From positions 1 through 63,549 of the IMG/VR virus record IMGVR_UViG_3300036861_000361: 63,549 bases of DNA; one strand, written 5' to 3'. Positions 2,391 to 63,365 of this stretch are shown here, one piece after another; position 1 is the first letter of the stretch; each line of letters begins with the position of its first letter. The stretch comes from a virus (lineage: Duplodnaviria > Caudoviricetes). Below the pieces are notes generated by a model. That model made no database searches, was not told the origin of the DNA, and was given only the letters and a program-made list of their open reading frames with translations. The position numbers were made by a program, and so were the translations under genes.

Positions 2391-2396
2391 TGGCGT

Positions 2397-24614: not shown

Positions 24615-25010
24615 TTGAGCGGAGAAACAGAAAAAGAAGTCAGTGGTTGGACAATAGACACACTCAAGATACTTTTGGAAGTGCGCATGAGCGCGCACGA
24701 AAAAGCACTGAGCCTAGCCCGAGAGGAGTTAGAGCGGCGTTTAGATGGATTGAATCAGCTACGGCAGGAGGTCACGCAGGATAGATCGCAGTTTGTAAAG
24801 ACCGATGTTTATTATCCAGCCCATGAGGAATTGCGAAGACAGCGCATTTCTGACAATGAGAAGATAACAGTGCTTCAGGGTGACGTGAAGAATAATGCAA
24901 CCGACATCGCACAAATGAAGAGTTCGCTGATGTGGCTGACTCGTTTGATTGCAGGCGCACTGGTTCTCGGCATCATAGCCTATGTATTTCAAAGGTTGAC
25001 GGGGAGATAA
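24615..25010 (+). CDS. Coiled-coil protein with C-terminal TM (holin-like)
   Basis: C-terminal WLTRLIAGALVLGIIAYVF. Confidence 0.5.
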   Translation: MSGETEKEVSGWTIDTLKILLEVRMSAHEKALSLAREELERRLDGLNQLRQEVTQDRSQFVKTDVYYPAHEELRRQRISDNEKITVLQGDVKNNATDIAQMKSSLMWLTRLIAGALVLGIIAYVFQRLTGR

Positions 25011-30671: not shown

Positions 30672-33362
30672 TTAAAAGTCCTCCATTGAGTCCATGTCGT
30701 AACCTATTTGTGAATCGGCGTGGACAAAGAAGTTGCCTAAACTGTTGACCAATACCTCTGACGGTTTCTCGAACTCAGCCGTCACTACTTGCTTGCACTC
30801 ATCGGCGTCCTGCTCACGGGGCATCGACCACAGCGCGTCATGGGCAAAATTTACCGCGTTGAATTGTTTGAATACTCCGCCAGCGTGCAACCTGACCAGT
30901 GCTGCTTGCACAGTGCAGTGAGCGCAGTTACTGACTCTAAACGCAGTGCCCTGCTCAGCATCCTGATCCCAGAACCAGCGCATACAACCAAAGGGTGAGA
31001 TGAGTCGAGGTGACTTGGCGAGCAGCCGCTTTGTTTCAGCCGGGAACTCCTTGAACGTCTTGGGGAACAGGTTTTTAATCAGATAGATAAGTTCCTGCAC
31101 CTCACCCAACGACACAAAACCACCGTGGAGAATACGGAACATTTTCTCAGCACCCCCACCGAAGGCCATAAGGAAACTACACCTCTTCACCTTAGCGTTG
31201 CGAACATCGGTGTGCTTCTGCTTAATTTCTTTCAGGCGCTTACCCAAGTCAGAATCATTCATTGTCAGTAGACTGTCCGCATCAGGCTCCTCCATATAGT
31301 GCGCAGTGACGAAGCTGTGAACGTCGGAGTTGGCAAGGCGATAGTAGGCGGCGTCCTCGGCCAAAAATCCCTGCATTCGTGCATGGAAGCCGCGCAGGTC
31401 AGTCTTCACAAATACGTGGCCCTTCTCAGCGCGAATGGTGCCCTTGACCCGGTGCATGAGGTCGGTTATCCACGCATCGTTGGGGTCATAGTGCTCGGGG
31501 AACTGTTGGATGTTGGGCCGAGTACAGGATGTCTGCCCACTCGCTGTGCCAAAGCGGAATGTCCCATGCACACGACCATCACCGTTGGGCACCCAGTCAC
31601 CATTGGCATAGGTGCCACCGAGTTTGGTCAGCTTGCGTATCTTCTGCACCAGACGCAGCACATCGTCATCGGTCTCATCAATGAGAGCCTCGATTGCTTC
31701 TTTACCGGTAGTGTCACGGCCTGTGTCAATGTGGATGGGGACGCGGTAGCCCTGAAAGCGGATGTACTCCAAAAGTTGTTGTGACGAGTTGGAATTGAAC
31801 GGAAGCAGCTTGCACAGGCGATGCTCAACGTAGGATTCTCCTTCTGGTGTCACTAATTCGAATGGTTGACTCATGTAGCCCAACGCATTGTACTGCTCGT
31901 AGAATTGTGTCGGCTGGCATTTCTTGACCCAGAGCCCAGCGGCTTTGACCGCCTCACGTAAGTCTTTAGGGAAGCCCTTGTAGCCCTCCTTGGGAGTGAT
32001 GGGACGCAACTCCAGTGGCACTAACTCTTGCAACTCAGCCGACAGTGCCACTTCCTGCTCCGCAATGAACTCACGCAACTGAGCCTGCCGATCCTTGTCC
32101 ACGGGCAGGCCACGCTCACTAAGGTCGTCAAGCACAAAGCTTAGACGGTACTTGGTCTGATAATAGCCATCATAGAGATTAGACTTGTGCAGCGCAGCAA
32201 ACAGTTTGACGCCAACGCGGTAAGTCAGGTCAGCATCTCGTGCTCCGTACCATCGAAGTGTGGGCCACACGCGAGTCTCTAACCACTCGTCGCGCTCAGG
32301 GCCGTTTTCGTAGGGGCAGGAGGGGTCTACCATACCTTTCCAGACGCCCTCTTGTGGATAATAGAAGCTGACACAGGATTGCAGGGACATCAGCTTGGAT
32401 GGCACGCCCTTGTCACCGTGGGTGTCGTCCTTGTTCGACATGAAGTTTGGTTGCAGGTGGCCCCATGCATCCATCAGGTCATGGGTCTCACCATTGATGG
32501 TCACTCCATGAGCCCGCAGCACCTTACGGTCGAACAGGCGGTCAAACCAACCCCACTTGGGATTGGGTAGCGCGAGGATGGTCTCTATTGCCTCTCTCCG
32601 CTCGGGCCACGGCAGTACAAGGGCTTCTCCTGCATTGGATGAGAACTGCACTTGCAAGATGCGCTTGTCAGCCCACGTGCTCGGTTCGTCCTCGCCAAGT
32701 ATGTCCCCGGTTTCGATGTCATAAGCGCAGGGAAGTTCAGGGTCGTTACGCAGCTGCTGGATATATGCATCCACGTCAAGAGATGTTGGTGAGGTAACAT
32801 AGTTGGTGGGCAGTCGAGCAGGGATTCCCTTGGTAGCAAATTGGTGGACGCGCCTTATGTCGTGCATGAATGCCCCGAACAGATGCATCGCACCTCGGGC
32901 CAGAAATGACGGATGGTAGGTGGCAATCATCGGAATGCCATAGCGTGATTCAAGTAGAAAGCCACGCAGTTCGCTAATGTTGCCTTTGGTGAGGCTCAGT
33001 TCTTTGAGGGGAACGTCTCCGAGCGTCAGGATTAGCTTTGGCTTGCGCTCTTCGACAGCGGCGTCGAGGTACTGCCTGCACTGCGCGACAGCCTCTGGTG
33101 GATAGGGGGCTTCACTTTTGCACCTGATGGTATTTGTGATCGTTAATAATTTGCGGTTAATGCCACCGCCGTTTACTGCCTTTTGGAATACACCCCCACT
33201 GGGTGCACGTGGTCGCAAAGGAAGCCCATCAATTTCTTCCGCACGTCCAAGTGATTCAGCTATTACCATCAGCCCGCTGCTACCATCCCCTTCCAGCAGG
33301 GAGAAGCCCTTACGGTTGGAGTGCAAGGAGCAGCCGAGGCAGGTTTTGGGCAGGGGAATCAT
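30672..33362 (-). CDS. Family A DNA polymerase with N-terminal family-4 uracil-DNA-glycosylase-like domain and 3'-5' exonuclease
   Basis: CLGC..ESLG..TYHPSFL (UDG); YDIET and Y..RDAD (exo); PNIQQFP, AHDAL (pol). Confidence 0.9.
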   Translation of the reverse strand: MIPLPKTCLGCSLHSNRKGFSLLEGDGSSGLMVIAESLGRAEEIDGLPLRPRAPSGGVFQKAVNGGGINRKLLTITNTIRCKSEAPYPPEAVAQCRQYLDAAVEERKPKLILTLGDVPLKELSLTKGNISELRGFLLESRYGIPMIATYHPSFLARGAMHLFGAFMHDIRRVHQFATKGIPARLPTNYVTSPTSLDVDAYIQQLRNDPELPCAYDIETGDILGEDEPSTWADKRILQVQFSSNAGEALVLPWPERREAIETILALPNPKWGWFDRLFDRKVLRAHGVTINGETHDLMDAWGHLQPNFMSNKDDTHGDKGVPSKLMSLQSCVSFYYPQEGVWKGMVDPSCPYENGPERDEWLETRVWPTLRWYGARDADLTYRVGVKLFAALHKSNLYDGYYQTKYRLSFVLDDLSERGLPVDKDRQAQLREFIAEQEVALSAELQELVPLELRPITPKEGYKGFPKDLREAVKAAGLWVKKCQPTQFYEQYNALGYMSQPFELVTPEGESYVEHRLCKLLPFNSNSSQQLLEYIRFQGYRVPIHIDTGRDTTGKEAIEALIDETDDDVLRLVQKIRKLTKLGGTYANGDWVPNGDGRVHGTFRFGTASGQTSCTRPNIQQFPEHYDPNDAWITDLMHRVKGTIRAEKGHVFVKTDLRGFHARMQGFLAEDAAYYRLANSDVHSFVTAHYMEEPDADSLLTMNDSDLGKRLKEIKQKHTDVRNAKVKRCSFLMAFGGGAEKMFRILHGGFVSLGEVQELIYLIKNLFPKTFKEFPAETKRLLAKSPRLISPFGCMRWFWDQDAEQGTAFRVSNCAHCTVQAALVRLHAGGVFKQFNAVNFAHDALWSMPREQDADECKQVVTAEFEKPSEVLVNSLGNFFVHADSQIGYDMDSMEDF

Positions 33363-50865: not shown

Positions 50866-53265
50866 ATGTCAATCGAAATACAGGAACTGCTCCGGAGTGG
50901 AAAATTCGACGGTTGGGAGAAGTGGGCACCCGAGGCTCAGTTGCTGCTGCGTGATGAACTCAAGCGGGCAGTCGAGACACTGAATCTCAAGGTGCCGCAG
51001 ACCGATGACGAATTGAAACTGCTGGTGCGCGATACCTGCGGCGTGATACTGCCCGATACCCAAGTCTGCACCAACCACACCACACCCTTCCGCGCTTTCA
51101 GTGATGCATTCTTTGCCCGCAGCCCGGTAACAGTGTGGAAAGCTAGTCGCGGATTTGGCGGCAAGTCATTTCTACTCGCACTCCTGGGCCACGTCGAAGC
51201 CTTTACGCTGGGAGCAGAGGTAGCCATACTCGGTGGCAGTGGTGAGCAGTCGCTCGGTGTCATGCGCTACCTGCAGAAGTTCACTGGCGGCGAGCAGACC
51301 ATGACCCAGCGCCAATCACTGTACGGAAGCGGTGGCAAGATACGAGCGCAGATGGCCTCATCCACCTCAGTGCGTGGCCCACACCCACAGCGACTGCGCC
51401 TTGACGAAGTTGATGAGATGGAATTGGAGATACTCGACGCCGCGATGGGCCAACCAATCAGCACCGCGAAGATTGCCAAGCAGACTGTGATGAGTTCAAC
51501 CCACCACTACCCGGACGCCACCTTCAGCGAGATACTCAAGCGTGCCGATGATAACCAGTGGCCGGTGATGGAGTGGTGTGTGGACGGAGACTCTGATATA
51601 CTGACTCCTAATGGACAAGTAAAAATGAAAGACCTGTCCATAGGAGACTCAATTTATGCGTTCAGAGACGGACAGCTTATCAGAACTCAAATCATCAACG
51701 CTTGGCAGTCAGGACTCAGACCCACACTCAGAATTGAAACTGATGCGGGCGTCCTTAGATGCACCGCCGAACATCGCGTTCTTACGGTCACGGGCTGGAA
51801 AGAAGCAGGCTCACTCACAGAAGGTGAAATTGTGCGTGCTGTGTGGCAAACGAAAAGCCCGTCGCTACAAAGACAAAACTTGCAGGAAGTGTCACTGCGC
51901 CAACAAGTGTTTGGATTGCGGAACCGTCATTACGGAAGAAGCGAAGCGGTGCTGTGCTTGTCAAGGCAAGATTCACGCGGAGCTGGTGAGGGCGCGGGCC
52001 GTGAAGTCAATATGTCCGTCCTGCAAAGGCCGGAAGCGAACCGCATCGCGGGTTTGTCTCATTTGCTTTCGCAAAGAACTTACCAAGCGGAACATTCGAG
52101 AAGCGGGAACAATGGTACTAGCACGGCAGCGGATTTCACACTCAGGAACAAGCCGCAAGCGCCGCAGTTCAGGCGAGATGGCAGTAAAGGAATTGTTCTC
52201 GCGTTTATCCGTTCGCTATTTGGAGGAACAGCTTTTCGACCGTTACGTGGTAGATTTTGTTTTCCCCGAATTCAATTTGGCCGTGGAGGTCAGTGGCAGA
52301 TATTGGCACACGAAGCCAGAACAGGTGAAGCGAGACCGCTTGAAGAAGAAAGCGGTGGAAGCGATGGGTTTAACACTTCTAGTGCTGTGGACAGATCAAC
52401 CCCATCTGTGGACTTTGCAGTTGTTCGACGCATTGAGCGTAACGCTACCATCCCTGTCTATGACATAACAGTTGCAGAAGGCTCATCCTTCATTGCCAAC
52501 GGTATAGTCGTTCACAACTGCTATCAGGAATCCTCGGCCCATCCCGACGGCTGGCTGGACGTGAACGAAATTCTCTCGAAGCAGAAGGAAGTTACCGCTG
52601 CCATGTGGGCCGCTGAGTACGACCTGCAGGAACCATCGCCCGAAGACCGCGCCATACTCACTGAGAAAGTAGATGCCTGCTTCCGCAAGAACTTAATCGA
52701 ATGGGGTCGGGATGAAGAACACGAGTGGAAGGGCCAACTCGGTGAGCGCATCGAAATAGAACCTCCCACACCTGAAGCCAAGTATGCCACCGGCTGCGAC
52801 TGGGCCAAGAAGAAAGACTTCACCATCATCGACACATTGCGCATCGACTGCCAGCCATTTCGTCGCGTTGCCTGGCAGCGCACCGGGCGACTGCCGTGGC
52901 CCATGATGATTGCACGGTTCGAGCAGCAGGTGAAACGCTATCCCGGTCGCTCCTGCCATGATGCTACTGGTCTTGGCGACGTAGTTGAAGATTACCAGGG
53001 AGCCAACGCCGAACCCGTGGTGCTGGTAGGGCAAACTCGCAGCGACGTTTTCACTAAATATATTGCGGCCATCGAAAACGGTGCTATCATCAGCCCGAAG
53101 ATTCGTCACTGCGAGAACGAACACCGCTACTGCACCAATGACGACCTTCGCGGCACCGGCCACCCGCCGGATTCGTTCATCGCTGGCGCAATGGCTTACC
53201 GCGCCGCCATGAAACGAGAGCCAGTCGAAGACGAGACCTACAGCTTCGGTTTTGTAGACTACTGA
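50866..53265 (+). CDS. Terminase large subunit containing an intein
   Basis: SRGFGGKS Walker A, LDEVDE Walker B, GCDWA/DATGLG/D nuclease motifs. Confidence 0.9.
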   Translation: MSIEIQELLRSGKFDGWEKWAPEAQLLLRDELKRAVETLNLKVPQTDDELKLLVRDTCGVILPDTQVCTNHTTPFRAFSDAFFARSPVTVWKASRGFGGKSFLLALLGHVEAFTLGAEVAILGGSGEQSLGVMRYLQKFTGGEQTMTQRQSLYGSGGKIRAQMASSTSVRGPHPQRLRLDEVDEMELEILDAAMGQPISTAKIAKQTVMSSTHHYPDATFSEILKRADDNQWPVMEWCVDGDSDILTPNGQVKMKDLSIGDSIYAFRDGQLIRTQIINAWQSGLRPTLRIETDAGVLRCTAEHRVLTVTGWKEAGSLTEGEIVRAVWQTKSPSLQRQNLQEVSLRQQVFGLRNRHYGRSEAVLCLSRQDSRGAGEGAGREVNMSVLQRPEANRIAGLSHLLSQRTYQAEHSRSGNNGTSTAADFTLRNKPQAPQFRRDGSKGIVLAFIRSLFGGTAFRPLRGRFCFPRIQFGRGGQWQILAHEARTGEARPLEEESGGSDGFNTSSAVDRSTPSVDFAVVRRIERNATIPVYDITVAEGSSFIANGIVVHNCYQESSAHPDGWLDVNEILSKQKEVTAAMWAAEYDLQEPSPEDRAILTEKVDACFRKNLIEWGRDEEHEWKGQLGERIEIEPPTPEAKYATGCDWAKKKDFTIIDTLRIDCQPFRRVAWQRTGRLPWPMMIARFEQQVKRYPGRSCHDATGLGDVVEDYQGANAEPVVLVGQTRSDVFTKYIAAIENGAIISPKIRHCENEHRYCTNDDLRGTGHPPDSFIAGAMAYRAAMKREPVEDETYSFGFVDY
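51577..52518 (+). mobile_element. Intein (314 aa, residues 238-551 of TerL)
   Basis: CVDGD block A, CTAEHRVL block B, VYDITV block F, VVHN|C block G. Confidence 0.92.
51824..52468 (+). CDS. Zn-finger plus DUF559/Vsr-like endonuclease nested out-of-frame in the intein
   Basis: Repeated CxxC pairs, then YVVDF..LAVEVSGRYWH..DRLK....G..LLVLW; start uncertain. Confidence 0.8.
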   Translation: MKLCVLCGKRKARRYKDKTCRKCHCANKCLDCGTVITEEAKRCCACQGKIHAELVRARAVKSICPSCKGRKRTASRVCLICFRKELTKRNIREAGTMVLARQRISHSGTSRKRRSSGEMAVKELFSRLSVRYLEEQLFDRYVVDFVFPEFNLAVEVSGRYWHTKPEQVKRDRLKKKAVEAMGLTLLVLWTDQPHLWTLQLFDALSVTLPSLSMT

Positions 53266-53275
53266 GGAGTGAGCC

Positions 53276-53638
53276 ATGAGTGATTACGATGTCACGACGG
53301 CGGATGGTACACGCATCAACGCGAAGGTGACGATTCCCAGTGGCCCCGGTGCAAGCTACTTGGTCTATACTGCATTGCTTACTCAAATAGGAACAGGCGC
53401 ACCAGTAGCTACGGTCATTGAGAACACAATAGGTGTGATAACGTTTTCTTACGATGACGTAGGTCAATACCACGCGCTTTCAGCGGGATTGTTCACAGAA
53501 GGAAAGACCGTTGTATTTTTAACTGACGTGCAAAGTTACGGAGCAAGACCTGTGAGCGCGAGTAGTATTTTACTTTTGGCAGGAACGGGTGATGATCAGT
53601 TTCTTAATGCATCCATTGAAATCCGCGTCTATCCATAG
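53276..53638 (+). CDS. Hypothetical (probable virion) protein, paralog A
   Basis: VYTALLTQ..AP..ENT.G..IEIRVYP. Confidence 0.7.
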   Translation: MSDYDVTTADGTRINAKVTIPSGPGASYLVYTALLTQIGTGAPVATVIENTIGVITFSYDDVGQYHALSAGLFTEGKTVVFLTDVQSYGARPVSASSILLLAGTGDDQFLNASIEIRVYP

Positions 53639-53648
53639 TGAGGCATAA

Positions 53649-54080
53649 ATGAATATAATCAACGGGCGCTTCTTGTCCATCGCGTTTTTGCTAGCTATCA
53701 GCTTTAATGCTATCGCGTTTACCAGATTTACACCACCTGCTAGACCATACAAAGTCTACACCGCAACCCTCACCCAGCAAGGAGAGGACGCTCCAACAGT
53801 CGTAGTGATGGAGAACACGCTGGGAGTTGAAATCACATGGTCACGGATGACTCAGGGCATGTATGCTGGCAGGACATCCATTCCAGTCTTCCCTTCAGAC
53901 AAAACCTTCATCCCGCCGATGCGCAGCGTGCAGGAACTTGAACCAACGCTCAACTTCAAGACATTCGCCTTCTACGGCAACACCAACACGGTCAACGTCC
54001 AAACCCTCATAAACAATTTGCAGTATGAGGACGGATTGTTGCGAGAGAACCCAATCGAGATTCGTGTCTACCCCGAATAG
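53649..54080 (+). CDS. Hypothetical protein, paralog B with signal-peptide-like N-terminus
   Basis: VYTATLTQ..AP..ENT.G..IEIRVYP. Confidence 0.7.
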   Translation: MNIINGRFLSIAFLLAISFNAIAFTRFTPPARPYKVYTATLTQQGEDAPTVVVMENTLGVEITWSRMTQGMYAGRTSIPVFPSDKTFIPPMRSVQELEPTLNFKTFAFYGNTNTVNVQTLINNLQYEDGLLRENPIEIRVYPE

Positions 54081-54083
54081 TCA

Positions 54084-56333
54084 ATGGCAACAGTAGTCAC
54101 ACTCCTTGCGTCCGTTGCCAACAAGACTGCCGAGGCGGCAACGACAAAGGTCATCAACCTGGCAGGGGCCGCTATTGGCGACTTGGTGCTGGTTGAGATT
54201 GCTGCCGACAACGCTGGCGCTAGCGGCGTGAGTTCCATCTCCAGTGTCACCGACTCCAAAGGTAATAGCTACTCTCAGGTTTTCCTCAAAAACCAGACAC
54301 CAGGAAGTGCTGCCGTTGACGGTTGCACGGTCGCGTTGTATCAGTCAGTACTTACCGCTGCGTTGGTCCAGAACGTAGATTCCATTACCGTCAACTTTTC
54401 GCCTAACACGACCGCAAAATGTCTTGGATTCCTTAAGGTAACCGGGGCAAACCCCACAAATTTCGGCACTGGCACCAATAGCGGTTCAGGCTCAGCCTAC
54501 TCAGTTGCCGCATCGTCGTCACTGGCAACTGGCGAACTGATCGTGGCCGTGGTTGCTAACGAGTCGGGCAGTTTTCCTGCCGCTGACACCGACACTTCCA
54601 ACGGATCGTGGACTGCTCATCTGCTCTCAGGTTCCGGTGGTTCTGGTGGCGACGCTACGAAAATGGGTATGTTGGTAATGTCCAAGATTGTCACTGGGGC
54701 AGGCACTCAAACAGTTGATGGCAGCAATGGTGCCAATACCGACTGGGCAGCAGGTTACGTGCTCTACCATGTCGCTACCGTGGGGTCGTCCTCGGTCTCG
54801 CCGTCACTCTCGCAATCACCGTCCTCGTCTCAGTCACCTTCAGTCTCACCTTCCGCATCCGTCAGTCCCAGTGCGAGTGTATCACCCAGTAGTTCAGCAT
54901 CACCTTCAGTCTCTCCGTCTGCAAGCCAATCACCCAGCATGAGTGTATCGCCCTCAGTCTCACCATCAGCAAGCACGTCGCCATCATCAAGTCAGTCTCC
55001 AAGTGTGAGCCCGAGTGAGTCGGTAAGCCCCTCGGCCAGCGTGAGCCCCAGTAGCAGTGAAAGTCCGTCAGTTTCACCAAGCGCAAGTGTCAGTCCGAGT
55101 GCAAGTGAAAGCCCCTCGATCTCCCCTTCGGCTTCAATATCTCCATCCAGTTCCGTGAGTCCGTCGTCCAGTGAGAGCCCGTCACTCAGTCCATCGGCAT
55201 CTGTGAGCCCTTCGTCCAGTGCATCACCAAGCGTCTCTCCAAGTACGTCTCAGTCACCAAGTTCGTCCGAGTCTCCATCCATGAGTCCATCAGCGAGTGT
55301 TTCACCGTCAGGCAGTGAGTCGCCCTCCGTGTCGCCGTCGTCCTCGGTGTCCCCCAGCGCAAGCGAATCACCTTCGGTTAGCCCATCCGAGTCCCCGTCA
55401 GTCTCACCTTCAAGTAGCGCGTCTCCCAGCCCCAGTGGCGGCTCCGAGAGTGTAAGTCCCAGTGGCAGCGAGTCCCCCAGCCTGAGTCCAAGCGCGTCAC
55501 AGTCTCCATCCGCATCAGCTTCACCAAGCCTGAGCCCGTCTGCGTCCCTGAGCCCAAGCACTAGCGCATCCCCATCAGTGTCACCGAGTGGTAGTGTTTC
55601 CCCGTCTGCCTCAGCTTCACCAAGCACCAGTCCCAGCGGCAGCCAGTCACCCTCTGCCTCAGTGTCACCATCTGTCTCCCCATCCAGCTCACGCTCACCA
55701 TCAGCGTCCGCAAGCCCGAGCGTCAGCCCCAGCCACTCCCTATCACCGAGCGCGTCTGCTAGCGCTTCAGTGAGCCCCAGTCACTCAGTGTCGCCATCGA
55801 TTTCAACGTCTCCAAGTGTTAGTCCATCAGCTAGTCGCAGCCCATCGGCATCCGTCTCCCCGAGCATCTCCCCATCAGGCAGCGTGAGTCCATCAGCATC
55901 GGAGTCTCCCAGCGCGTCCCCGAGTGCGAGCCTGTCGCCATCTGCCAGTGAGTCGCCGTCGCTTTCCCCCAGTGCATCTGCAAGTCCGAGTGTCAGCCCA
56001 TCTGGCTCAGAGTCCCCTTCGGTCTCCCCCAGCGCCAGCATCTCACCGTCCGCGAGCGTGTCTCCCTCCGTCAGCCCAAGCGCAAGTGAGTCCCCAAGCA
56101 TTTCCCCGAGCGCATCCATCTCCCCCTCATCATCGGCCTCCCCATCCCCGACCCCCTTCAACCACATGCAGGCACTGTTCACTGCCCGCCAACCAACTGC
56201 CACCTTCGACTCCACTCAGCCCACCATAACTTTCTCTGTCACTAGGCCGTCTGTGACCTTCACAGTGCGTGCCCCATCAGTCACTTTCGACGCCCGCCAG
56301 CCATCAGCGACGATTATTGAAACTTATCCTTGA
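54084..56333 (+). CDS. Mucin-like protein: beta domain, ~455-aa Ser/Pro stalk, short C-terminal repeat anchor
   Basis: SPSxSx repeats 54786-56150; C-terminal FTARQPTAT-type 9-mers. Confidence 0.85.
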
Positions 56334-56358
56334 CACACCTCCTACAGTAGGATATTCT
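56330..56358 (+). promoter_or_regulatory. Sigma70-type promoter
   Basis: TTGACA-17 nt-TATTCT, 7 nt before GTG 56366. Confidence 0.7.
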
Positions 56359-56365
56359 GCTCCCC

Positions 56366-56512
56366 GTGAAGGTAGTTGATACTCATATTTACTTCCCTGC
56401 CAAGGTTTGGGCAGCATTAAAGCGGCTGGCTAAGCGCAATAGGCGGTCATTGTCAGCACAGATTGTTATTGCCGTTGAACAGATGCTGGAGCGGGAGAAT
56501 TCAAAGCAATGA
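56366..56512 (+). CDS. Arc-like ribbon-helix-helix regulator (not in ORF track)
   Basis: MKVVDTHIYFPAKVWAALKRLAKRNRRSLSAQIVIAVEQML. Confidence 0.75.
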   Translation: MKVVDTHIYFPAKVWAALKRLAKRNRRSLSAQIVIAVEQMLERENSKQ

Positions 56513-56732
56513 TCAGACGACAGATTGACTATGGCTATAACGAGAAGGGTGAGTTTGTCATAGAACTCACTGAAGCAGCCTTGGAAGATGATGGCGAGAC
56601 TATAGATGAGGGGCCATTTGAGTCTTCCATTACTCTGACCCGCAAAGAGTGCCAACGGATTTCAAAGCACATGGAATTTGGTAAGAAGGGGGATATTCGC
56701 TCCCTTGAAACCTTGAACGGGGAACTAACTAA

Positions 56733-57020
56733 GTGAAGTTATACATTGCGGGCCGCATCGCCAACGAAAAGGGCTACCACGCCAAGTTTGCCCGAGCTTG
56801 CACTGAGGTTTTGCTGCTTGACCACGTTCCCGTGAGCCCGTGTGATATTCACGGTGGCTGCGATCATCGAGAGTGGGAACAGTGGATGGTCTGTGACCTG
56901 CACGCGATGCTCGACTGTGATGGTGTCTATGCGCTCAGAGATTGGCAGTCCTCCAAAGGCGCGACTATCGAAGTGCAGTTGGCAATGCGACTGGGGAAAG
57001 AGATTATTTACCAACAATGA
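56733..57020 (+). CDS. DUF4406 / nucleoside 2-deoxyribosyltransferase-like protein
   Basis: KLYIAG..F..P..LDCDGVY.L..WQSSKGA..E. Confidence 0.8.
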   Translation: MKLYIAGRIANEKGYHAKFARACTEVLLLDHVPVSPCDIHGGCDHREWEQWMVCDLHAMLDCDGVYALRDWQSSKGATIEVQLAMRLGKEIIYQQ

Positions 57021-57400
57021 CCACCGCCGAAGCACTCGAACTCAGCGTCATCTACACCCGACTCCTGCGCGACCTGGAGGAACTGGGCAAGTTCGAGTTC
57101 ACTCCTGATGAGCTACACCGGGCGGTGCAGTTGCTGGATGACATGGCTGAGCAGGCGTATCAGGTGAAGCTAAAGGAGCGGCGATGAGCGTAATAAAAGA
57201 GAAGTGTTTCGTTTGCGATACTGAAATTATCATCAGCGTGGACGTTTTAATGAATGGCCCAATAATGGGTGGGCCAGAACACGAAGCCTTGGTAGCTAGA
57301 TACCTGAGACGCTACAAGACTGCCTCCGCTGATGAGGTACGACGTGTGTTGGAACAGATTCTTTATGATATTGGTACGGCTCAGCTAAGAGAGGTAGTGG

Positions 57401-59359
57401 ATGGCAAAAGTTAGTGTAATCATCCCCGCTCGCAACGAACGCTTCCTCGTCCCAACCATCGAGGACGTGTTCAAGAATGCCCGTGGCGAAGTGGAAGTCA
57501 TCGCCGTGCTCGAAGGCTACACTCCTGACAACTGGAAAGAAACCGTTGCTAAGTATCCTGCCCTGCACACCATTCAGCACCATGAAGCTAAGGGCATGAG
57601 GGCCGCGATCAATGCTGGTGCTGCCTCAGCCATCAGTCGTGGTGCCAAGTATCTTGCCAAATTCGATGCCCACTGCTGCTTTGGTGAAGGCTTTGATGAG
57701 ATTATTAAAGCTGACATGGACAAGGATTGGATTGTCGTCCCGCGCCGCAAGCGTCTTGACCCCGATACCTTTGCTCCCCGCAACGATGGCCGTCTTGACA
57801 TCGACTACCACTACCTGACCTTCCCTGACAACGTGAAAGATTTTGGTGGGCCAGGTCTCAATGGTCGGGTGTGGGATGAGCGGGCGCGGGAGCGGCTTGA
57901 TATTTTGCTGGATGAGGAGATGTCATCGCAGGGTAGCGGTTGGGCAATGCATGCTGCGTATTTCACTGAGTTGGAACTCATGGACGCTGCCAACTACGGC
58001 CAATTCTGGAATGAGTTTCAGGAGCTGGGATTGAAGTGTTGGCTCAGTGGCGGGCAGGTGATGGTCAACAAGAAAACTTTCTATGCACACTGGCATAAAG
58101 GCTCTGCTGGTCGCGGCTACCACCTCCCCAAAGAATGGCTGGCCCAAGGCGCAACCTTTACCAAACGCTGGCTGTTCAATGAAGCATGGGCCAAGCAGAC
58201 GCTGCCCTTCAAAACACTCATCGAACGCTTCTGGCCGGTGCCGACTTGGCCTGAGAATTGGGAGGAGTTGGTGTATGGGGGCAGGAAGTCTGTGGTTGCA
58301 ATGAGCAGTGAGAGTGGTGTCCGAACTCAGGTTGCGGAAGTTGTAACCCATGAAGCACAGCTTGTTATCCACTCCGCCCACTACGGCATTGATAGCCCTG
58401 ACCGTACTTCGGACGTCATTGATGTAACTAATGTGCTGCAACAGTCGGTGGTGGGTGGTTCACTGGACATAGTAGTCACGAACGACTCACTGAAGGTGGG
58501 CAACCCGTTCCGTGGGCAGAAGAAGCAACTGACAGTGGTCTATAGTTACGATGATGGTGAGCCTGTGACGATTACACGCGATGAACGCGACTGGCTCATC
58601 ATTGGGCAGAGTGCGAGGTATGTGAAGCAGGCGCAATCCACTTCCGAACCGAGTATTATTGGAATTCTGGACGCTGATGGTAAGAATGTTGGCAAAGTGG
58701 TACACGGAACATTGATAATCTCAGAACCGCCTCGTACCGCTGCCGCCCTCAACGATGCTCTCATCCGCCGCTTCCGCATCCATGACCGCCGCTTGCGTGG
58801 GCCAATGCCGATTGAAGTTCCTAGCTTTCACAGAGATGACCTTGCCAAGCTGTTTGCCGAGTTAGGCTTCCTGCACGGTGCGGAGATTGGTGTGGCTGAA
58901 GGCAACTACAGTGAGGTGCTGCTCAAGGCGAATCCAGACTGCCACTTGCTCCTCGTTGACCCGTGGCACGCCTACTCGAACAATCCACAGAACAAGTCCA
59001 AGGAGAAGAATGAGTACGCTTACAATGAGACGGTGAGGAAGACTAAGGACTATCCCAACGTTACATTAGACATGCGCTACTCAATGGATGCAGTGCGTGA
59101 CGTACCGGACAACTCCCTTGACTTCGTCTACATCGACGCTCACCACTCCTACCCATTTGTCATGGAAGACATCATCGCATGGAGCCGCAAGGTTCGCTCC
59201 GGTGGCATCGTCAGTGGCGATGACGTGTACCAACTTAATGAAAAGTGGGGTGCTGGGCCAATGGAAGCGGTGTATCACTACACGGAAGCGATGAAGATCA
59301 ATCCGTGGTTTCTAATTGATGCTCACAAATCAGTGGACTTCTTTTGGGTGAAGCCATGA
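57401..59359 (+). CDS. Fusion: ppGalNAc-T-like glycosyltransferase, SUEL/Gal-lectin-like domain, class I SAM methyltransferase (Methyltransf_24-like)
   Basis: VSVIIPARNE, KFDAH, ELGLKCWLSGG; AHYG..DVT..NPFRGQKKQLTVVY; AEIGV..FVYIDAHHSY..GGIVSGDD. Confidence 0.85.
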   Translation: MAKVSVIIPARNERFLVPTIEDVFKNARGEVEVIAVLEGYTPDNWKETVAKYPALHTIQHHEAKGMRAAINAGAASAISRGAKYLAKFDAHCCFGEGFDEIIKADMDKDWIVVPRRKRLDPDTFAPRNDGRLDIDYHYLTFPDNVKDFGGPGLNGRVWDERARERLDILLDEEMSSQGSGWAMHAAYFTELELMDAANYGQFWNEFQELGLKCWLSGGQVMVNKKTFYAHWHKGSAGRGYHLPKEWLAQGATFTKRWLFNEAWAKQTLPFKTLIERFWPVPTWPENWEELVYGGRKSVVAMSSESGVRTQVAEVVTHEAQLVIHSAHYGIDSPDRTSDVIDVTNVLQQSVVGGSLDIVVTNDSLKVGNPFRGQKKQLTVVYSYDDGEPVTITRDERDWLIIGQSARYVKQAQSTSEPSIIGILDADGKNVGKVVHGTLIISEPPRTAAALNDALIRRFRIHDRRLRGPMPIEVPSFHRDDLAKLFAELGFLHGAEIGVAEGNYSEVLLKANPDCHLLLVDPWHAYSNNPQNKSKEKNEYAYNETVRKTKDYPNVTLDMRYSMDAVRDVPDNSLDFVYIDAHHSYPFVMEDIIAWSRKVRSGGIVSGDDVYQLNEKWGAGPMEAVYHYTEAMKINPWFLIDAHKSVDFFWVKP

Positions 59360-59552
59360 CATTAAAAGAATTAGTAGAAGCCGCAGATGGGAACCTTGAC
59401 ACCGAAGTGCGGATGTACGTGGTTATTAACACTCTCGGAGTTCGCACGACGAGACCTATACTGCGAGCCGACATTGTTAGTGACCATCATGGGCCGATTC
59501 TATACTTGGACAACTGGATCGAGTATCGCCGAAGTGATTGGGAGAACTTGCC

Positions 59553-59771
59553 ATGACCTTTACCGAAGCCCTCGACGCCGTATTCAAGGACAACGACTGC
59601 ATCACCCGCGCCACCTGGGCCAACCGCAACATCTTCTGTGCCCTTGAGGAAGGTCGTCTCTGCATCAAGGGTTTTGCCAGCGAGGGTCAGGATGATGGTC
59701 TCTATCACCCGTGGGTAGTCACCGAACAGGACTTCTTTGCGTATGATTGGGAGGTGCTGAGTGATGCCTAA
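59553..59771 (+). CDS. DUF2829-family (Tad2-like) protein
   Basis: MTFTEAL..ITRATW..W....QDFFAYDWEV. Confidence 0.7.
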   Translation: MTFTEALDAVFKDNDCITRATWANRNIFCALEEGRLCIKGFASEGQDDGLYHPWVVTEQDFFAYDWEVLSDA

Positions 59772-60813
59772 GCGAGTTTGCATTACCGGAATTGCAGGCT
59801 TCATTGGCAGCCATCTTGCTGATGAATTGGTAGCTCACGATTATGATGTTTGTGGCATTGACAACCTTGATCCGCAGGTGCATGGGCCGGGTGGTCATCT
59901 TCCTACATACTTAAATCCAGCAATTCAGTTTCTAAAGGGAGACATCTGCGAATCAGTTGTGGAGCGTTTGTTTCCCGTTGACGCCGTGATTCATCTGGCT
60001 GCGAAAGTCGGTGTGGCCCAGTCCATGTACCAGATGTCAGATTACACTTGGCATAATACTTACGGCACGTCAATGCTGCTCCAGTCATTGCAGAAGTACC
60101 CGCCCAAGAAACTCATCGTCGCCTCCAGCATGAGCGTGTATGGGGAAGGGGCGGGAGTTTGTCCTGATGATGGCAGTCCCTGCGGAATGGATCACCGAAT
60201 CCCTGTGCCTACCCCTGAAACTAAGCAGCCCGACCTGCAATCTATCTACGCCCTCACCAAGTACGACCAAGAGCGCATGTGCCTGCTGTTTGGTCGTGCT
60301 TATCACGTCCCCACCATCGCGCTCAGGTTCTTCAACGTCTATGGCCTACGTCAGTCACTAAACAACCCTTATACTGGGGCAATGGCAATCTTTGCCTCCC
60401 GCCTGCTCAACGGCAAGCCTCCAATCATCTATGAGGATGGATTGCAAAGCCGTGACTTTGTGCATGTGAGTGATGTGGTGCGCGGGATACGGCTGGCACT
60501 GGAATCGGATGTGAGTGATGAAGTTATCAACATTGGCAGTGGCACGCGGGCTTTGATTCTTACTCTAGCTGAAGATTTGGCTAAGGAGTTGGGAGTAGAT
60601 GTTAGACCCCAGATTACCAGACAGCACAGAGTCGGGGACATTCGCCATTGTTGGGCTGATGTTTCCAAGGCTAGACGGCTGTTGGGCTATGAGCCGCAGG
60701 TATCTATTTTCCAAGGCATTCGTGATTATGTTCAATGGCTCAAAACTCAACCCGCCGAGGACAACTTAGAGCAGCATCGAGCAGAGTTACGGGAGAAAGG
60801 ATTGCTGGTATGA
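59761..60813 (+). CDS. NAD-dependent NDP-sugar epimerase/dehydratase
   Basis: GIAGFIG, HLAA, SS, YALTK, RFFNVYG, RDFVHV. Confidence 0.92.
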   Translation: MMPKRVCITGIAGFIGSHLADELVAHDYDVCGIDNLDPQVHGPGGHLPTYLNPAIQFLKGDICESVVERLFPVDAVIHLAAKVGVAQSMYQMSDYTWHNTYGTSMLLQSLQKYPPKKLIVASSMSVYGEGAGVCPDDGSPCGMDHRIPVPTPETKQPDLQSIYALTKYDQERMCLLFGRAYHVPTIALRFFNVYGLRQSLNNPYTGAMAIFASRLLNGKPPIIYEDGLQSRDFVHVSDVVRGIRLALESDVSDEVINIGSGTRALILTLAEDLAKELGVDVRPQITRQHRVGDIRHCWADVSKARRLLGYEPQVSIFQGIRDYVQWLKTQPAEDNLEQHRAELREKGLLV

Positions 60814-61149
60814 GTGTAATGAGTTCACTCCGGCGCAAACTTAGCTATGAATATCAAAGTGTTCCACCTGAACTGCTGGTCCGTTATGTTGAAGCTCGAC
60901 GTGTCCGGCAGAACACCAGACGGCGGAAGCGAATCGCTCGCATGGCTAGGCCCAAGGGTTCTCTGCCGAAATGAAAGGGGTTGTTGATATGAGAACTTGG
61001 ATTCTTTTCAGCGCCAGTATCTTAGCGATAGCTATTAGACCTGAAATTAACTCGGTAGAGATAATGGGTCGTAATGTTGCTGTGGTGTGGATTGCTTTGC
61101 TTATTGCAGGTTTCTTTTTTGACGCCAGAGAGCATATTAAGAGGACAGA

Positions 61150-62055
61150 ATGAAGGTATACCTCACCCCACCCCAACCTTCCCGTGGCCTGCAACGCATT
61201 GCTGATGCGCTGGTGAAGTGGAAGCCAGACGGTGTAGAAGTTGTAAGCGATGAACGTGAGGCGGAGCTGGTGGTGCTCTACGCGATTGGGCGTAATGGCG
61301 CGTTGGTTCGCAAAGCAGTTGAATTACAGGGTAACAAGCAGAAGTACGCAGTTATTCAGGTCTGTCTCCGCTCGACAATGAAACCGCGTACTGATGCTTG
61401 GTTACACTTATGGTGGGCGGCTGAAGTTGTCTGGAGTTACTACGACTTGAATGCGGCGATAACTGTTGACGGCAGCGATGATCGACCTCTATTGAACTTC
61501 TACCACGCCCCTCTGGGAGCGGATGCGGAAGTGTTTCGTGACCCGTTCGTGAGTGAGCGATGGGAAAGTATTCCACGCAATGGCCGGAACTTTATTATAA
61601 CTACCAGTGGTCTAAGTCGTCTAAGTGAAAGTGTGCGAGAGTGCTGGTTGGCCGCAAAGGAAGTCGATGGCAAGGTATTCCATGTAGGGCCGTCGATACG
61701 CACAAATCAACTGATTCAATTTTCTCGTGACTGTACTGACATTGAGATGGCAATTCATTATGCCGCCTCACAATTCGTCTCCGCTCTCCGCCGCACCGAA
61801 GGCTTCGAGTTGCCAGCAGTGGAGGGACTACTCTGTGGTGCACGTCCCATCTGCTTTTCAACTAGAGACTACCGGACTTGGTACGAACCTTTTGCGGAGT
61901 TTATTGAGGAAGGTTCACGTGCTGACGTGGTGGAGAGCTTGGTGAAACTGTTTAAGCAGGGTGCTCGCCCTGTTACCGAAGATGAACTAGCGTTAGCGCG
62001 AGAACGGTTTAACTGGAAAACTATAATTGAAGGATTCTATAGTCGCGTACAATGA
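61150..62055 (+). CDS. GT-B (GT4-like) glycosyltransferase
   Basis: EGFELPAVEGLLCG (Ex7E) and C-terminal RFNW. Confidence 0.8.
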   Translation: MKVYLTPPQPSRGLQRIADALVKWKPDGVEVVSDEREAELVVLYAIGRNGALVRKAVELQGNKQKYAVIQVCLRSTMKPRTDAWLHLWWAAEVVWSYYDLNAAITVDGSDDRPLLNFYHAPLGADAEVFRDPFVSERWESIPRNGRNFIITTSGLSRLSESVRECWLAAKEVDGKVFHVGPSIRTNQLIQFSRDCTDIEMAIHYAASQFVSALRRTEGFELPAVEGLLCGARPICFSTRDYRTWYEPFAEFIEEGSRADVVESLVKLFKQGARPVTEDELALARERFNWKTIIEGFYSRVQ

Positions 62056-62615
62056 AGCCTGCTACATGCCATCCAGAAAAACCTGATCGCGGTCGCGGAC
62101 TATGCAACGTCTGTTATATGCGTGTATGGAGAACGGAGAATCCCGAGCACGTTAAAGATTACCAACGGCAATGGTCGGATAAAAACAGAGAAAGTGTTAA
62201 CCAGAAAGCAAGGGAGCGCTGGGCTGCTAATCCTGAGCTATATCGTGAAAGAAACCGTCGCAAGACAGCGCAGCGGAGACAGGAATTAAATCAGCAAGCC
62301 CGTGAATGGCGACAGAAAAATCCAGTCAAGATACTCATGCAGAGATATAGAGCGCCGGAGCACGAAGTTCTGCGTGTCTTGGCATCCGAGACGTGCGAGG
62401 CTTGTGGGTCTACGGAACAACTACACTTCGATCATGATCATAGCACGGGCGTGCTGCGTGGTCGGCTTTGTCGGGGATGCAACATCGCAGTTGGTGCCTT
62501 ACGTGACTCACCTGATATAGTGTTTAGTCTTGGACGTTACCTATTGAAGTATCAAGCAAAAACGGTAGATGCGTATCCCGACTGGAAAGACGGTAGAGAA
62601 CTTAAAGTGTCGTGA
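62052..62615 (+). CDS. Endonuclease VII-family homing endonuclease
   Basis: CEACG..DHDH..G.LRGRLC..CN..G. Confidence 0.85.
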   Translation: MKPATCHPEKPDRGRGLCNVCYMRVWRTENPEHVKDYQRQWSDKNRESVNQKARERWAANPELYRERNRRKTAQRRQELNQQAREWRQKNPVKILMQRYRAPEHEVLRVLASETCEACGSTEQLHFDHDHSTGVLRGRLCRGCNIAVGALRDSPDIVFSLGRYLLKYQAKTVDAYPDWKDGRELKVS

Positions 62616-62616
62616 T

Positions 62617-62712
62617 GCGGTGGAGCGATTTAACTGGGAGACAATCATCGGTGGCTTCTATGAACGGCTTGATGGGACTAAAGCTGCTGAAGCCTTCGCA
62701 GAGCGAGCATAG
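62617..62712 (+). pseudogene. Orphan duplicate of GT4 gene 3' end
   Basis: ERFNWETIIGGFYERL vs ERFNWKTIIEGFYSRV in 61150..62055. Confidence 0.75.
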
Positions 62713-62723
62713 AGCGGCAACGG

Positions 62724-63365
62724 ATGAACACCTTAGATAGAATCCGTGAATTGTGGCCGCAGTTGCCACTACGAGGCCGCCTGCTGCCGTGGGAAATCGC
62801 AGATGTCGGGAGGGACGACCTTGCTCAATTATTTAATCACCTCGATTTCAAAGTCGGTGTTGAGGTTGGCACTGAATATGGACTATATGCTGAGACGCTC
62901 TGCAAAGCTGCTCCTCGGCTGAAGCTGTACTCGGCTGACCCCTACAAGGCTTACAAGGGCTACCGTGAGCATCGCTCGCAACAGAAGCTCAATGGCATCT
63001 ATGAGCAGGCCCAGGAGCGAATGTACCCTTACAACCATGAGTTCATCTGCAAGCCCAGCATTGAAGCCGCTGCTGACTTCAAAGACGGCTCACTGGATTT
63101 CGTCTACATCGACGGCAACCACTCACTACTGCATGTAATTCAAGACCTGTGCTACTGGGTGCCCAAGGTGCGCAAGGATGGTATCGTCGCTGGACATGAC
63201 TTCATCCGTCGTGACCATACTGGTTACGCAATGCATGTTTGTCAGGCACTGCATGCCTACACGCAAAGTTATGGAATCAAGCCGTGGTACGTGTTAGGAT
63301 CGAAAGCAGTTCGAGATGGTGAAGTCAGAGATAAGCCGAGGAGCTGGATGTGGGTGAAGAGTTAA
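62724..63365 (+). CDS. Class I SAM methyltransferase (Methyltransf_24-like)
   Basis: VEVGT..DFVYIDGNHS..GIVAGHDF; paralog of 57401 C-terminal domain. Confidence 0.85.
   Translation: MNTLDRIRELWPQLPLRGRLLPWEIADVGRDDLAQLFNHLDFKVGVEVGTEYGLYAETLCKAAPRLKLYSADPYKAYKGYREHRSQQKLNGIYEQAQERMYPYNHEFICKPSIEAAADFKDGSLDFVYIDGNHSLLHVIQDLCYWVPKVRKDGIVAGHDFIRRDHTGYAMHVCQALHAYTQSYGIKPWYVLGSKAVRDGEVRDKPRSWMWVKS

Follow-up and report, generated by a model that had tools for sequence, protein, structure and literature searches.

The window analyzed here (the whole stretch of DNA, 63,549 nucleotides) holds a 63.5-kb phage record estimated to be 95% complete. The region from the terminase gene to the head genes encodes a pair of GT-A glycosyltransferases, a GT4-like GT-B enzyme, an SDR sugar epimerase, a pair of Methyltransf_24 domains and a 749-residue protein, and the enzyme genes are all located in the late structural operon. 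This inventory, including two GT-A enzymes and two paralogous methyltransferase domains, was put forward in the original prediction and was confirmed gene by gene. A DUF4406 protein (Pfam) is also encoded inside the cluster at 56733–57020. The TerL assignment is based on a match to phrog_9 (E 3.6e-5), plus an intein, and the putative portal gene (3357–4967), for which no Pfam or PHROG match was found, is named from its position only. A complete relative with terminal repeats, G003, supports contiguity across the ends of the window: in it the genes for the stalk, the GT-A2-methyltransferase fusion, GT-A1, the tagged small protein and the protein at the portal position adjoin. The phage is uncultured, and its tail module is similar to those of Pseudomonas, Stenotrophomonas, Ralstonia and Vibrio phages, not to those of actinobacteriophages.

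The 749-residue stalk protein (54084–56333, plus strand) comprises a globular N-terminal domain (aa 1–234), a strictly alternating (Ser-x)n tract (aa 235–689; window 54786–56150) and a short C-terminal piece of repeated R/Q-P-x-x-T-F strands. The predicted Ser/Pro stalk of about 455 residues proved to be 454 residues of alternating (S-x), in two unbroken runs of 218 and 236 residues (aa 235–452 and 454–689), where the x positions include 85 Pro, 40 Ala, 35 Val and 14 Glu; SPS occurs 84 times in the protein. No Pfam or PHROG family was found for the stalk protein, and a protein-atlas search returned unnamed viral clusters only. Tandem Repeats Finder detected just two short arrays in the gene (47 and 39 bp), the tract uses all six serine codons, and nine SPSASV units are encoded by nine different 18-mers. 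The tract is therefore neither a chance feature nor a DNA-level repeat, and is kept at the protein level.

Five further proteins were predicted to carry the same tract, and all five do, sharing the alternating S-x pattern and the x residues of the stalk; three are tail proteins by PHROG and two are unnamed ORFs of the head module. All are encoded on the plus strand. The first head-module ORF (2641–3033, 130 aa) ends in a 14-aa Ser tag (window 2989–3030), and the second (8424–8855, 143 aa), located just after the major capsid gene, in one of 56 aa (window 8685–8852); the G003 orthologue of the former has the same tag and that of the latter is likewise tagged. The major capsid protein itself is untagged. 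The major tail (tube) protein (11233–12078; phrog_807, E 7e-57) has a 24-aa C-terminal tag (window 12004–12075), and none of 25 alignments to cultured-phage homologues, among the matches listed, extends beyond aa 249. The 946-aa tail(-tip) protein (19574–22414; phrog_1101) contains an internal 102-aa tract (window 21422–21727) that joins on an extra C-terminal domain, and the 715-aa tail(-tip) protein that follows (22415–24562; phrog_1082) ends in a 42-aa tag (window 24434–24559).

GT-A1 (201–1895, plus strand) has two domains: a GT27-like catalytic one (aa 1 to ~325), which contains D89-x-H91, H268 and an inserted Cys4 zinc ribbon, and a second one with a nucleotide-sugar-transferase fold (aa ~325–560). 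GT-A2 (57401–59359, plus strand) is a single fused protein with a GT27-like GT-A domain (aa 1 to ~290), a DUF3395-like domain (aa ~320–395) and a Methyltransf_24 domain (aa ~465–640), as delineated by Pfam. The two paralogues are 33% identical across 331 columns (E 7e-32) and both match Pfam Glycos_transf_2; the G003 orthologue of GT-A2 is 54% identical. A profile of the GT-A family (24 members) matched 29 PDB sequences, and the top 16 were all GT27 polypeptide GalNAc-transferases, 15 of them named as such and the other being 8uhv, titled Toxoplasma GalNAc-T3. The best match, 1xhb (E 1.4e-23), covered profile positions 4–249 of 284; the remaining 13 matches were limited to the first ~100 positions. 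The full-length model of GT-A1 (pLDDT 90.1) pointed to the same family, with GalNAc-T2, T1 and T10 as the top Foldseek matches, and with GalNAc-T1 (8v9q_A; Z 26.3, rmsd 2.8, 269 aligned residues) and TgGalNAc-T3 (8uhv_A; Z 24.8) ahead of the next single-domain match (Z 18.2) by VIA-align. The C-terminal domain (aa 324–559) matched nucleotidyl- and glycosyltransferase folds (Z 11.6–12.2).

By profile and by predicted fold, the closest solved relatives of the GT-A family are thus the polypeptide GalNAc-transferases of GT27, the initiators of mucin-type O-glycosylation in animals, with identities to the GT27 structures of only about 16–20%. D89, H91, H268, E246 and W252 are invariant across the 24 family sequences, and the motifs LDAH and AHFFR align with LDAHC and GHVFR of GalNAc-T1. 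The region of the Gal/GalNAc-T motif (WGGEN-E type) aligns as SWGQMGTE, in which the glutamate E246 is invariant and the rest has diverged. Neither GT-A1 nor GT-A2 has a ricin-type lectin domain or, judged by hydropathy, a type II membrane anchor, and no TM-like segment was found in any of the enzymes using a 19-residue Kyte-Doolittle window (maximum mean 0.72 for GT-A1 and 1.13 for GT-A2). The label "mucin-type", which the original prediction gave to the system, is well founded as far as enzyme kinship goes.

The 301-aa GT-B enzyme (61150–62055, plus strand) had no match in Pfam, NCBIfam or PHROG and was assigned as GT4-like from its predicted fold: a Foldseek search with its AlphaFold model (pLDDT 91.4) retrieved GT-B enzymes of the GT4 type (top E 1.4e-11), with 7qsg, 3mbo, 4xso and PglA as the top matches. 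The product of 59761–60813 (plus strand) is an extended-SDR enzyme resembling NDP-sugar 4-epimerases (Pfam Epimerase, E 2.3e-48); its best NCBIfam match was GalE, under the cut-off of that model, and the nearest PDB entries were 4zrm (a UDP-glucose 4-epimerase), 6zl6, MoeE5 and WbpP/WbgU. A stand-alone methyltransferase (62724–63365, plus strand) is paralogous to the C-terminal part of GT-A2 (37% identity to aa 465–639, E 1e-32; Methyltransf_24 in both) and gave a single PDB profile match, 6g7d (E 9.6e-4). These genes differ in how widely they accompany GT-A. A methyltransferase was found in 62 of 80 viral GT-A loci, with fusion to a GT-A ORF in this phage and in 12 of the 80, while the GT-B gene was found in six (missing from 74) and the epimerase in seven, and both are missing from G003. 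GT-B can therefore not be the conserved initiator. The conserved core consists of the two GT-A genes and the methyltransferase, with GT-B and epimerase as accessory genes, and the self-contained pathway of initiation, extension and methyl capping in the original prediction gains no support in that form.

The suggestion that GT homologues and Ser tracts co-occur was followed up in the same 80 loci, 26 with full 10-kb flanks and 54 truncated, with a tract defined as at least 24 aa of (S/T-x) runs of at least eight units each and containing at least two Pro. A tract was present in 64 of the 80 loci (25/26 with full flanks, 39/54 truncated) as compared to one of 41 control loci encoding GT-B with no GT-A nearby, and this sole positive control, L034, comes from a complete genome that encodes two GT-A enzymes at another place. 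Loci with both GT-B and GT-A had a tract in 13 of 13 cases. The nearest tract ORF was always on the same strand as the GT-A gene, at a median distance of 318 bp and within 1 kb in 51 of the 64 positive loci. The 16 loci where no tract was seen comprise 15 truncated ones and a 20-kb contig; no tract was seen in 20 of 45 MAG loci, many of them short. In none of the 80 loci did the tract-bearing neighbours of GT-A show BLAST similarity to the N- or C-terminal parts of the stalk described here, and it is therefore the tract itself that recurs.

The comparison of close relatives gave a corresponding picture. G003 (100% complete) encodes both GT-A genes, the same five tagged proteins and a stalk, whereas G004 (100%) and G002 (91%) have no GT-A and no tract anywhere in their genomes. 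Nevertheless, the tail module is common to G002 and G004 at equal similarity, with tail tubes 63–64% identical to the one described here, versus 62% for G003. Their tail tube orthologues are 251 aa long and without a tag, the orthologues of the 19574–22414 protein (639 and 649 aa) stop ahead of the tract, and those of the 22415–24562 protein (651 aa in G004, 681 aa in G002) align within aa 1–665 only. When records of 70% completeness or more that encode the tail-tip orthologue were compared, GT-A was found in all seven with a tract and in neither of the two without. Relatives that have the tail module but not GT-A thus lack every tag, with orthologues ending where the tag starts.

As the presence of the enzymes and that of the serine-rich tails go hand in hand among related phages, the phage probably sugar-coats its own particle. 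The reading we favor, with a probability of roughly 0.7, is that phage-encoded enzymes O-glycosylate Ser tags of virion proteins in the cytoplasm; that the transferases act on such dedicated tags was part of the original prediction, which gains support from both the co-occurrence and the joint absence. The acceptors would be the alternating (Ser-x)n tags, with x mostly Pro, Ala or Val, on the tail tube, two tail-tip and two head-module proteins, and additionally the 454-residue stalk of what may be a dedicated fibre-like protein. One or both of the GT27-like enzymes would use a UDP-sugar and a metal bound at D-x-H...H to place the first sugar on tract Ser hydroxyls. Extension of the glycan may then fall to GT-A2, to the C-terminal transferase-fold domain of GT-A1 and, for this particular phage, to the GT4-like GT-B; the epimerase may supply a 4-epimer nucleotide sugar, and the methyltransferase domains, one of them fused to GT-A2, may methylate the sugars. 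If true, glycans would form a mucin-like brush on the fibre and along the tail of the virion, possibly used for shielding, hydration or adhesion. New in the present analysis are the GT27 kinship by profile and fold, the joint loss of GT-A and tags as judged from the genomes compared, and the division into core and accessory genes.

An alternative is that the Ser tracts are unmodified, flexible and protease-resistant spacers, such as the Ser/Pro linkers without glycosylation that exist elsewhere, and that the GT cassette has some other target (for instance a host protein, envelope glycans of the host or a small molecule), with only linkage and shared ancestry connecting the two. The phylogenies leave room for this, since each of the trees tested traces the association back to only one or two evolutionary events. 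Two changes suffice for the GT-A and tract labels on the GT-B tree (one to two independent pairs; sign test p = 1), and a single change on the tail-protein tree, where the tract-less rows form one clade. The perfect association counts thus rest on few independent events because they are phylogenetically clustered on both trees. Against this reading, the tags lie 10–25 kb from the GT genes, on five proteins, and are all gone in the GT-less relatives despite the equally similar tail genes, and the tract recurs without its flanks. The enzymes are moreover predicted to be soluble and are encoded among late structural genes, and GT27 enzymes, which among solved structures are the closest to the GT-A proteins, glycosylate Ser/Thr in unfolded peptides rich in Pro. 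We consider the spacer explanation unlikely.

Glycosylation could also be restricted to the long stalk or fibre protein, with another role for the short tags of the tail tube and tip, perhaps as docking sites or as spacers in assembly. The tract ORF does mostly adjoin the GT-A genes, and the other proteins have short tags (14–56 aa), but these have the same alternating pattern and x residues as the stalk and disappear along with the enzymes in G002 and G004, and the C-terminus of the mycobacteriophage tail tube is a reported glycan site (PMC12619734). This restricted version is accordingly rather improbable. Modification of phage DNA by base glycosylation and methylation is very improbable indeed: the methyltransferase family (phrog_2675) is labelled DNA methyltransferase by PHROGs and in some GenBank records, DUF4406 is related to nucleoside 2-deoxyribosyltransferases, and DNA-glycosylating phage GTs are cited in PMC12619734, but a Pfam scan of 50 ORFs or ORF parts of the window detected no hydroxymethylase or other base-hypermodification enzyme (many small ORFs being nameless), the link to the Ser tracts would be left unexplained, and the profile and fold kinship is to peptide-acting GT27 enzymes.

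Set against eukaryotic GT27 enzymes, the phage GT-A proteins share the GT-A catalytic domain, the D-x-H and the downstream His and, as presumed acceptors, Ser in extended, Pro-rich tracts, while the Gal/GalNAc-T region aligns but has diverged; they differ in having no lectin domain or membrane anchor, in their cytoplasmic setting, and in their extra domains (zinc ribbon, second transferase fold, DUF3395-like and methyltransferase). Long (Ser-x)n repeats are also known as dense O-glycan acceptors for dedicated cytoplasmic GTs, followed by extension enzymes, from the Ser-rich repeat glycoproteins of Gram-positive cocci (GspB and Fap1, modified by GtfA/GtfB) and the staphylococcal SD-repeat proteins (SdgA/SdgB). 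The initiators in those systems are GT-B enzymes and the products are exported adhesins. The stalk resembles the Ser-rich repeat glycoproteins in its long runs with Ser at every second position, whereas here GT-B is dispensable, the tract-linked enzyme is a GT27-like GT-A, x is mainly Pro and the tagged products are virion proteins.

Among phages, virion glycosylation of Che8, Corndog and others is credited to Freeman et al. 2023 (Cell Host Microbe) in PMC12619734, PMC11256854 and PMC13313380, and PMC12619734 describes mycobacteriophage glycans that sit on the C-terminal ends of capsid and tail tube subunits. As in the Corndog layout (PMC4351075), phage-encoded GT and O-methyltransferase genes are here found among virion structural genes; the tail tube C-terminus is likewise a proposed acceptor, and modification is similarly proposed to occur in the cytoplasm before or during assembly. 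Unlike the acceptors given in those texts, the strictly alternating (Ser-x)n tags proposed here reach 454 residues and also occur on tail-tip and stalk proteins but not on the major capsid protein. The enzymes also differ from those of Che8- and Corndog-type phages in having no detectable homology to them: in tblastn searches of 50,697 GenBank phage records, GT-A1 and GT-B gave zero matches at E ≤ 1e-3, and the GT-A2-methyltransferase fusion (E ≤ 1e-5) gave methyltransferase matches only, with no GT. Relatives of GT-A are encoded on at least 566 IMG/VR contigs.

At 63,549 bases, the window covers an entire IMG/VR virus record; the record is classed as 'linear' with 95% completeness, and no overlap was found between its two ends. 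Genes lie on the forward strand over approximately 1-28 kb (head, tail, lysis) and from 50 kb onwards, and on the reverse strand over 28-50 kb, a replication region that includes nucleases, AAA proteins and a family-A polymerase whose N-terminus is UDG-like. The polymerase is an 896-aa protein (30672-33362, minus strand) combining a UDG-superfamily domain (aa 25-159) and a family-A DNA polymerase domain. All genes that the original prediction had assembled into a virion O-glycosylation system were found, confirming the observation: two glycosyltransferases of the GT-A type (GT-A1, 201-1895; GT-A2, 57401-59359), a GT-B enzyme (61150-62055), an epimerase (59761-60813), a stand-alone methyltransferase (62724-63365) and a serine-rich stalk protein. 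The neighbouring large terminase gene (50866-53265) contains an intein (Pfam Intein_splicing, aa 252-551, E 5.9e-12), with exteins matching phrog_9 and the terminase of the related contig G004, and the 'portal' label was assigned by position only. A 131-aa protein encoded downstream of the tail genes (24615-25010), its C-terminus resembling XhlA at a score under the Pfam cut-off (E 1.1e-7), probably belongs to the lysis cassette.

The stalk protein (54084-56333, 749 aa) contains 84 'SPS' motifs, and its strictly alternating (Ser-x)n tract totals 454 residues, with a single break between the runs aa 235-452 and aa 454-689. The same tag is found on five other proteins: C-terminal copies of 14 aa (protein 2641-3033), 56 aa (8424-8855), 24 aa (major tail protein, the tail tube, 11233-12078) and 42 aa (tail protein 22415-24562), and an internal linker of 102 aa in the 946-aa tail protein at 19574-22414. 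The N-terminal domain of the stalk matched no Pfam, NCBIfam or PHROG family and did not resemble the domain at the C-terminus of the 946-aa tail protein; in the protein atlas it matched unnamed viral clusters only. Two paralogous small proteins encoded upstream of the stalk gene (53276-53638 and 53649-54080; 36% identity, E 8e-11) both terminate in IEIRVYP, and the stalk in the similar IIETYP (56300-56333), endings which may represent a shared attachment motif. Downstream of the stalk gene lie genes for a small ribbon-helix-helix protein (56366-56512) and, before GT-A2, a DUF4406 protein (56733-57020, E 1.7e-16), a member of the nucleoside 2-deoxyribosyltransferase-like superfamily.

A comparison of eight viral contigs with tail tubes 60-69% identical to that of this phage provided a natural experiment. 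The contig G003, which is complete with terminal repeats, has a gene for each GT-A enzyme (65% and 54% identity), carries the tags on the five corresponding proteins, encodes a 1,408-aa stalk with 146 SPS, and lacks GT-B, the epimerase and a separate methyltransferase. G004 (100% complete) and G002 (91%) have the entire tail module in common with this phage at the same identity as G003 (tail tube 63-64%, versus 62% for G003), and neither a GT-A gene nor a tract was found anywhere in them. Their tail tube is 251 aa long and stops at the tag start, and their tail-tip orthologues (649 and 639 aa, 651 and 681 aa) stop ahead of the tracts. None of the 25 matches listed for cultured-phage tail tubes passes residue 249 of 281. 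At 27-38% identity, the resemblance of the tail tube to those of Pseudomonas, Stenotrophomonas, Ralstonia and Vibrio phages is too weak for naming a host. Widening the comparison through the tail tube gave 9 loci, 8 of them already included, and through the tail-tip protein 24 loci. Among the records of the latter set at least 70% complete, GT-A was present in 7/7 with a tract and 0/2 without one, and two half-complete tract-less records also lacked GT-A; ten small fragments (7-35% complete) with a tract and no GT-A in the sequenced piece are uninformative.

Co-occurrence of glycosyltransferase homologs and tagged proteins, proposed as a check in the original prediction, was assessed with a fixed tract criterion (runs of (S/T-x) with no fewer than 8 units and two prolines, adding up to 24 residues or more). 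Of the 80 best GT-A loci in IMG/VR, 70 of which were distinct in a 2-kb fingerprint, 64 contained tracts: 25/26 loci with full 10-kb flanks and 39/54 truncated loci. When 54 viral loci were instead collected through GT-B, tracts were present in all 13 that also held GT-A and in only 1 of the 41 without GT-A nearby, the exception (L034) lying in a complete genome with two GT-A genes elsewhere. The predicted association of GT-A homologs with tracts was thus borne out. In the 64 positive loci the nearest tract ORF lay a median of 318 bp from a GT-A gene (below 1 kb in 51) and on the same strand in every case. As the tract-bearing neighbours had no BLAST similarity to the stalk ends of this phage in any of the 80 loci, the tract itself is the recurring element. 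In GTDB, 45 GT-A loci were found, all on MAG contigs labelled as many unrelated bacterial and archaeal phyla; 25 were tract-positive, many of the negatives being short. We take most of them to be binned viral contigs, pointing to no host.

Shared descent accounts for part of this association, as the perfect counts rest on few independent events. In the tail-protein tree, the six rows lacking a tract cluster as a single clade (98% SH-aLRT) within the tract-bearing ones, which takes only one change of the tract label, most simply a joint loss of tags and enzymes; the GT-B tree requires two changes of the GT-A and tract labels, giving only one or two independent pairs. With so few label changes on the tail-tip and GT-B trees, no statistical claim of repeated co-evolution could be made. 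Shared descent does not easily explain the joint gain or loss of tags on five separate genes together with the enzymes, nor does it easily account for tracts on unrelated proteins beside the GT-A family across many contigs.

A DNA-level origin of the stalk tract, by repeat expansion or recent slippage, was ruled out by its nucleotide sequence: Tandem Repeats Finder detected two arrays only (47 and 39 bp) in the stalk gene, the serines use all six Ser codons in proportions near the genome-wide ones, and a different 18-mer encodes each of nine SPSASV units. Selection acting on the protein therefore maintains the alternating pattern, with Ser at every second position and mostly P (85), A (40), V (35) and E (14) between.

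The two GT-A enzymes are paralogs (33% identity, E 7e-32). A single-sequence search of PDB sequences with GT-A1 gave 13 matches, 12 of them named polypeptide GalNAc-transferases, the starters of mucin-type O-glycosylation classified in GT27, and the thirteenth (8uhv) titled Toxoplasma GalNAc-T3. With a profile of 24 family members, the best PDB match reached E 1.4e-23 and spanned positions 4-249 of the 284; GT27 enzymes made up the first 16 matches, while ordinary GT2 enzymes aligned to the first ~100 positions only. D89, H91, H268, E246 and W252 are invariant in these 24 members, and D89, H91 and H268 of GT-A1 constitute the D-x-H plus His pattern that binds manganese in GT27 enzymes. The full-length GT-A1 model (pLDDT 90.1) was closest to GalNAc-T1 (Z 26.3) and TgGalNAc-T3 (Z 24.8), with the next single-domain match well behind at Z 18.2, and Foldseek agreed on GT27 as nearest. 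The family has neither the lectin domain nor the membrane anchor of GT27, and we place it beside GT27, not inside it. Because the C-terminal half of GT-A1 (aa 324-559) is modelled as a nucleotide-sugar-transferase-type fold (Z 11.6-12.2), and K4CP and similar two-domain polymerases align over both halves, GT-A1 is probably a two-headed enzyme. No PHROG covers the family, and a search of 50,697 GenBank phage records gave no match; in a library of 1.84 billion proteins it has 1,055 cluster representatives (E <= 0.001).

The Methyltransf_24 domains of GT-A2 (C-terminal) and of the stand-alone methyltransferase are also paralogs (37% identity, E 1e-32). In single-sequence searches of PDB sequences neither GT-A2 nor the stand-alone enzyme gave a match, and the methyltransferase profile produced a single weak one, 6g7d (E 9.6e-4). 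PHROGs labels the family as DNA methyltransferase; its fusion to a glycosyltransferase argues for a shared pathway. By its Pfam match (E 2.3e-48), the product of 59761-60813 is an epimerase or dehydratase of the extended-SDR type; its nearest relatives are 4-epimerases of UDP-hexose, hexuronate and HexNAc. The enzyme at 61150-62055 had no family match, and its model (pLDDT 91.4) is of the GT-B fold with GT4 enzymes as Foldseek neighbors and, as best fold match, 7qsg, a methylmannose polysaccharide mannosyltransferase from Mycobacterium hassiacum. We take 6g7d to be a mycobacterial sugar O-methyltransferase of the same pathway, and the two matches together are a weak hint of a methylated mannose-type glycan. 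No membrane-like segment was found in any of the enzymes, and GtrABC-type seroconversion was rejected, there being no membrane proteins and no bactoprenol-type glycosyltransferase.

Two mobile nuclease genes adjoin the glycosylation genes. An Endonuclease VII-type gene (62052-62660, Pfam E 1.1e-13) overlaps the GT-B gene at its final codons, and directly after it, in the frame at 62560, a second copy of the GT-B C-terminus is found that is nearer the family consensus; the gene looks like a homing-endonuclease insertion with its own replacement 3' end for GT-B. The second is an HNH endonuclease gene (1878-2408, minus strand; HNH_3, E 1.3e-4), antisense and directly after GT-A1.

Among the 80 GT-A loci, 62 contained at least two GT-A ORFs, 71 the second domain of GT-A1 and 62 a methyltransferase (fused to GT-A in 12); the epimerase and GT-B were found in only 7 and 6, respectively. 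Together with G003, these loci define GT-A1, GT-A2 and the methyltransferase as the core of the system. GT-B and the epimerase are lineage-specific additions that probably vary the glycan.

Homology, folds, gene order and co-occurrence are observed, and every chemical step in the following scheme is inferred. The soluble enzymes would be produced late in infection, at the same time as the virion proteins; a GT27-like enzyme would add the first sugar to serines of the extended tags, further transferase domains would lengthen the glycan, and the methyltransferases would cap it. Assembly of the tagged proteins would then give a glycan brush on the tail tube, the tail tip, some head-associated proteins and the long stalk. 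We assign a probability of roughly 0.7 to phage enzymes glycosylating the virion serine tags, the core of this reading being supported and its details unproven. It is rather doubtful that the tracts are true mucin-like domains, with dense O-glycans on every second serine of the (Ser-x)n runs, and that a viral enzyme family, closer to GT27 than any other outside the eukaryotes, starts these glycans in the cytoplasm of the bacterium.

The closest known phenomenon is virion glycosylation in mycobacteriophages, the only phages for which glycosylated particles have been reported so far (as cited in PMC12619734 and PMC11256854). Capsid and tail tube subunits are cited as bearing glycans at their C-termini (PMC12619734), and the capsids of Che8 and Rita as carrying a 'glycan shield' (PMC11256854). 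In Corndog, genes for an O-methyltransferase, two glycosyltransferases and a putative GlcNAc-transferase separate the portal gene from the protease gene (PMC4351075). The system proposed here has the idea and the tail tube C-terminus in common with the mycobacteriophage one, but differs in its unrelated enzymes, its much longer, stereotyped acceptors, its dedicated stalk and its occurrence in uncultured phages. No account of GT27-like phage enzymes paired with serine tracts was found in the part of the published literature covered.

The findings point to a second, unrelated route of virion glycosylation, apparently a widespread one, which would use a GT-A family akin to animal mucin initiators and modular serine tags that could be added to any virion protein, along with a dedicated mucin-like stalk. 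If the reading of the tracts as true mucin-like domains holds, glycan-brush virions would be common among uncultured phages, as at least 566 IMG/VR contigs encode a GT-A relative, and the family may also bear on the origin of eukaryotic mucin-initiating enzymes, for which it would, if confirmed, provide a non-eukaryotic outgroup to GT27. Confirmation would also give a new picture of environmental phage surfaces, regarding stability, adhesion to slime or biofilms and evasion of recognition, and a compact, soluble system of the bacterial cytoplasm for the dense O-glycosylation of peptides on a short genetic tag.

By analogy, the alternating Ser repeats of this phage recall the serine-rich repeat adhesins that Gram-positive cocci have. 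Some other phages with GT-A enzymes of this family (loci L108, L113, L127, L132, L139, L160, L161, L117, L138, L147 and L010) have the variants (S-S-T-P)n, (S-E-S-P)n and (T-P)n in place of SPSxSx, and the acceptor motif seems to drift between phage lineages.
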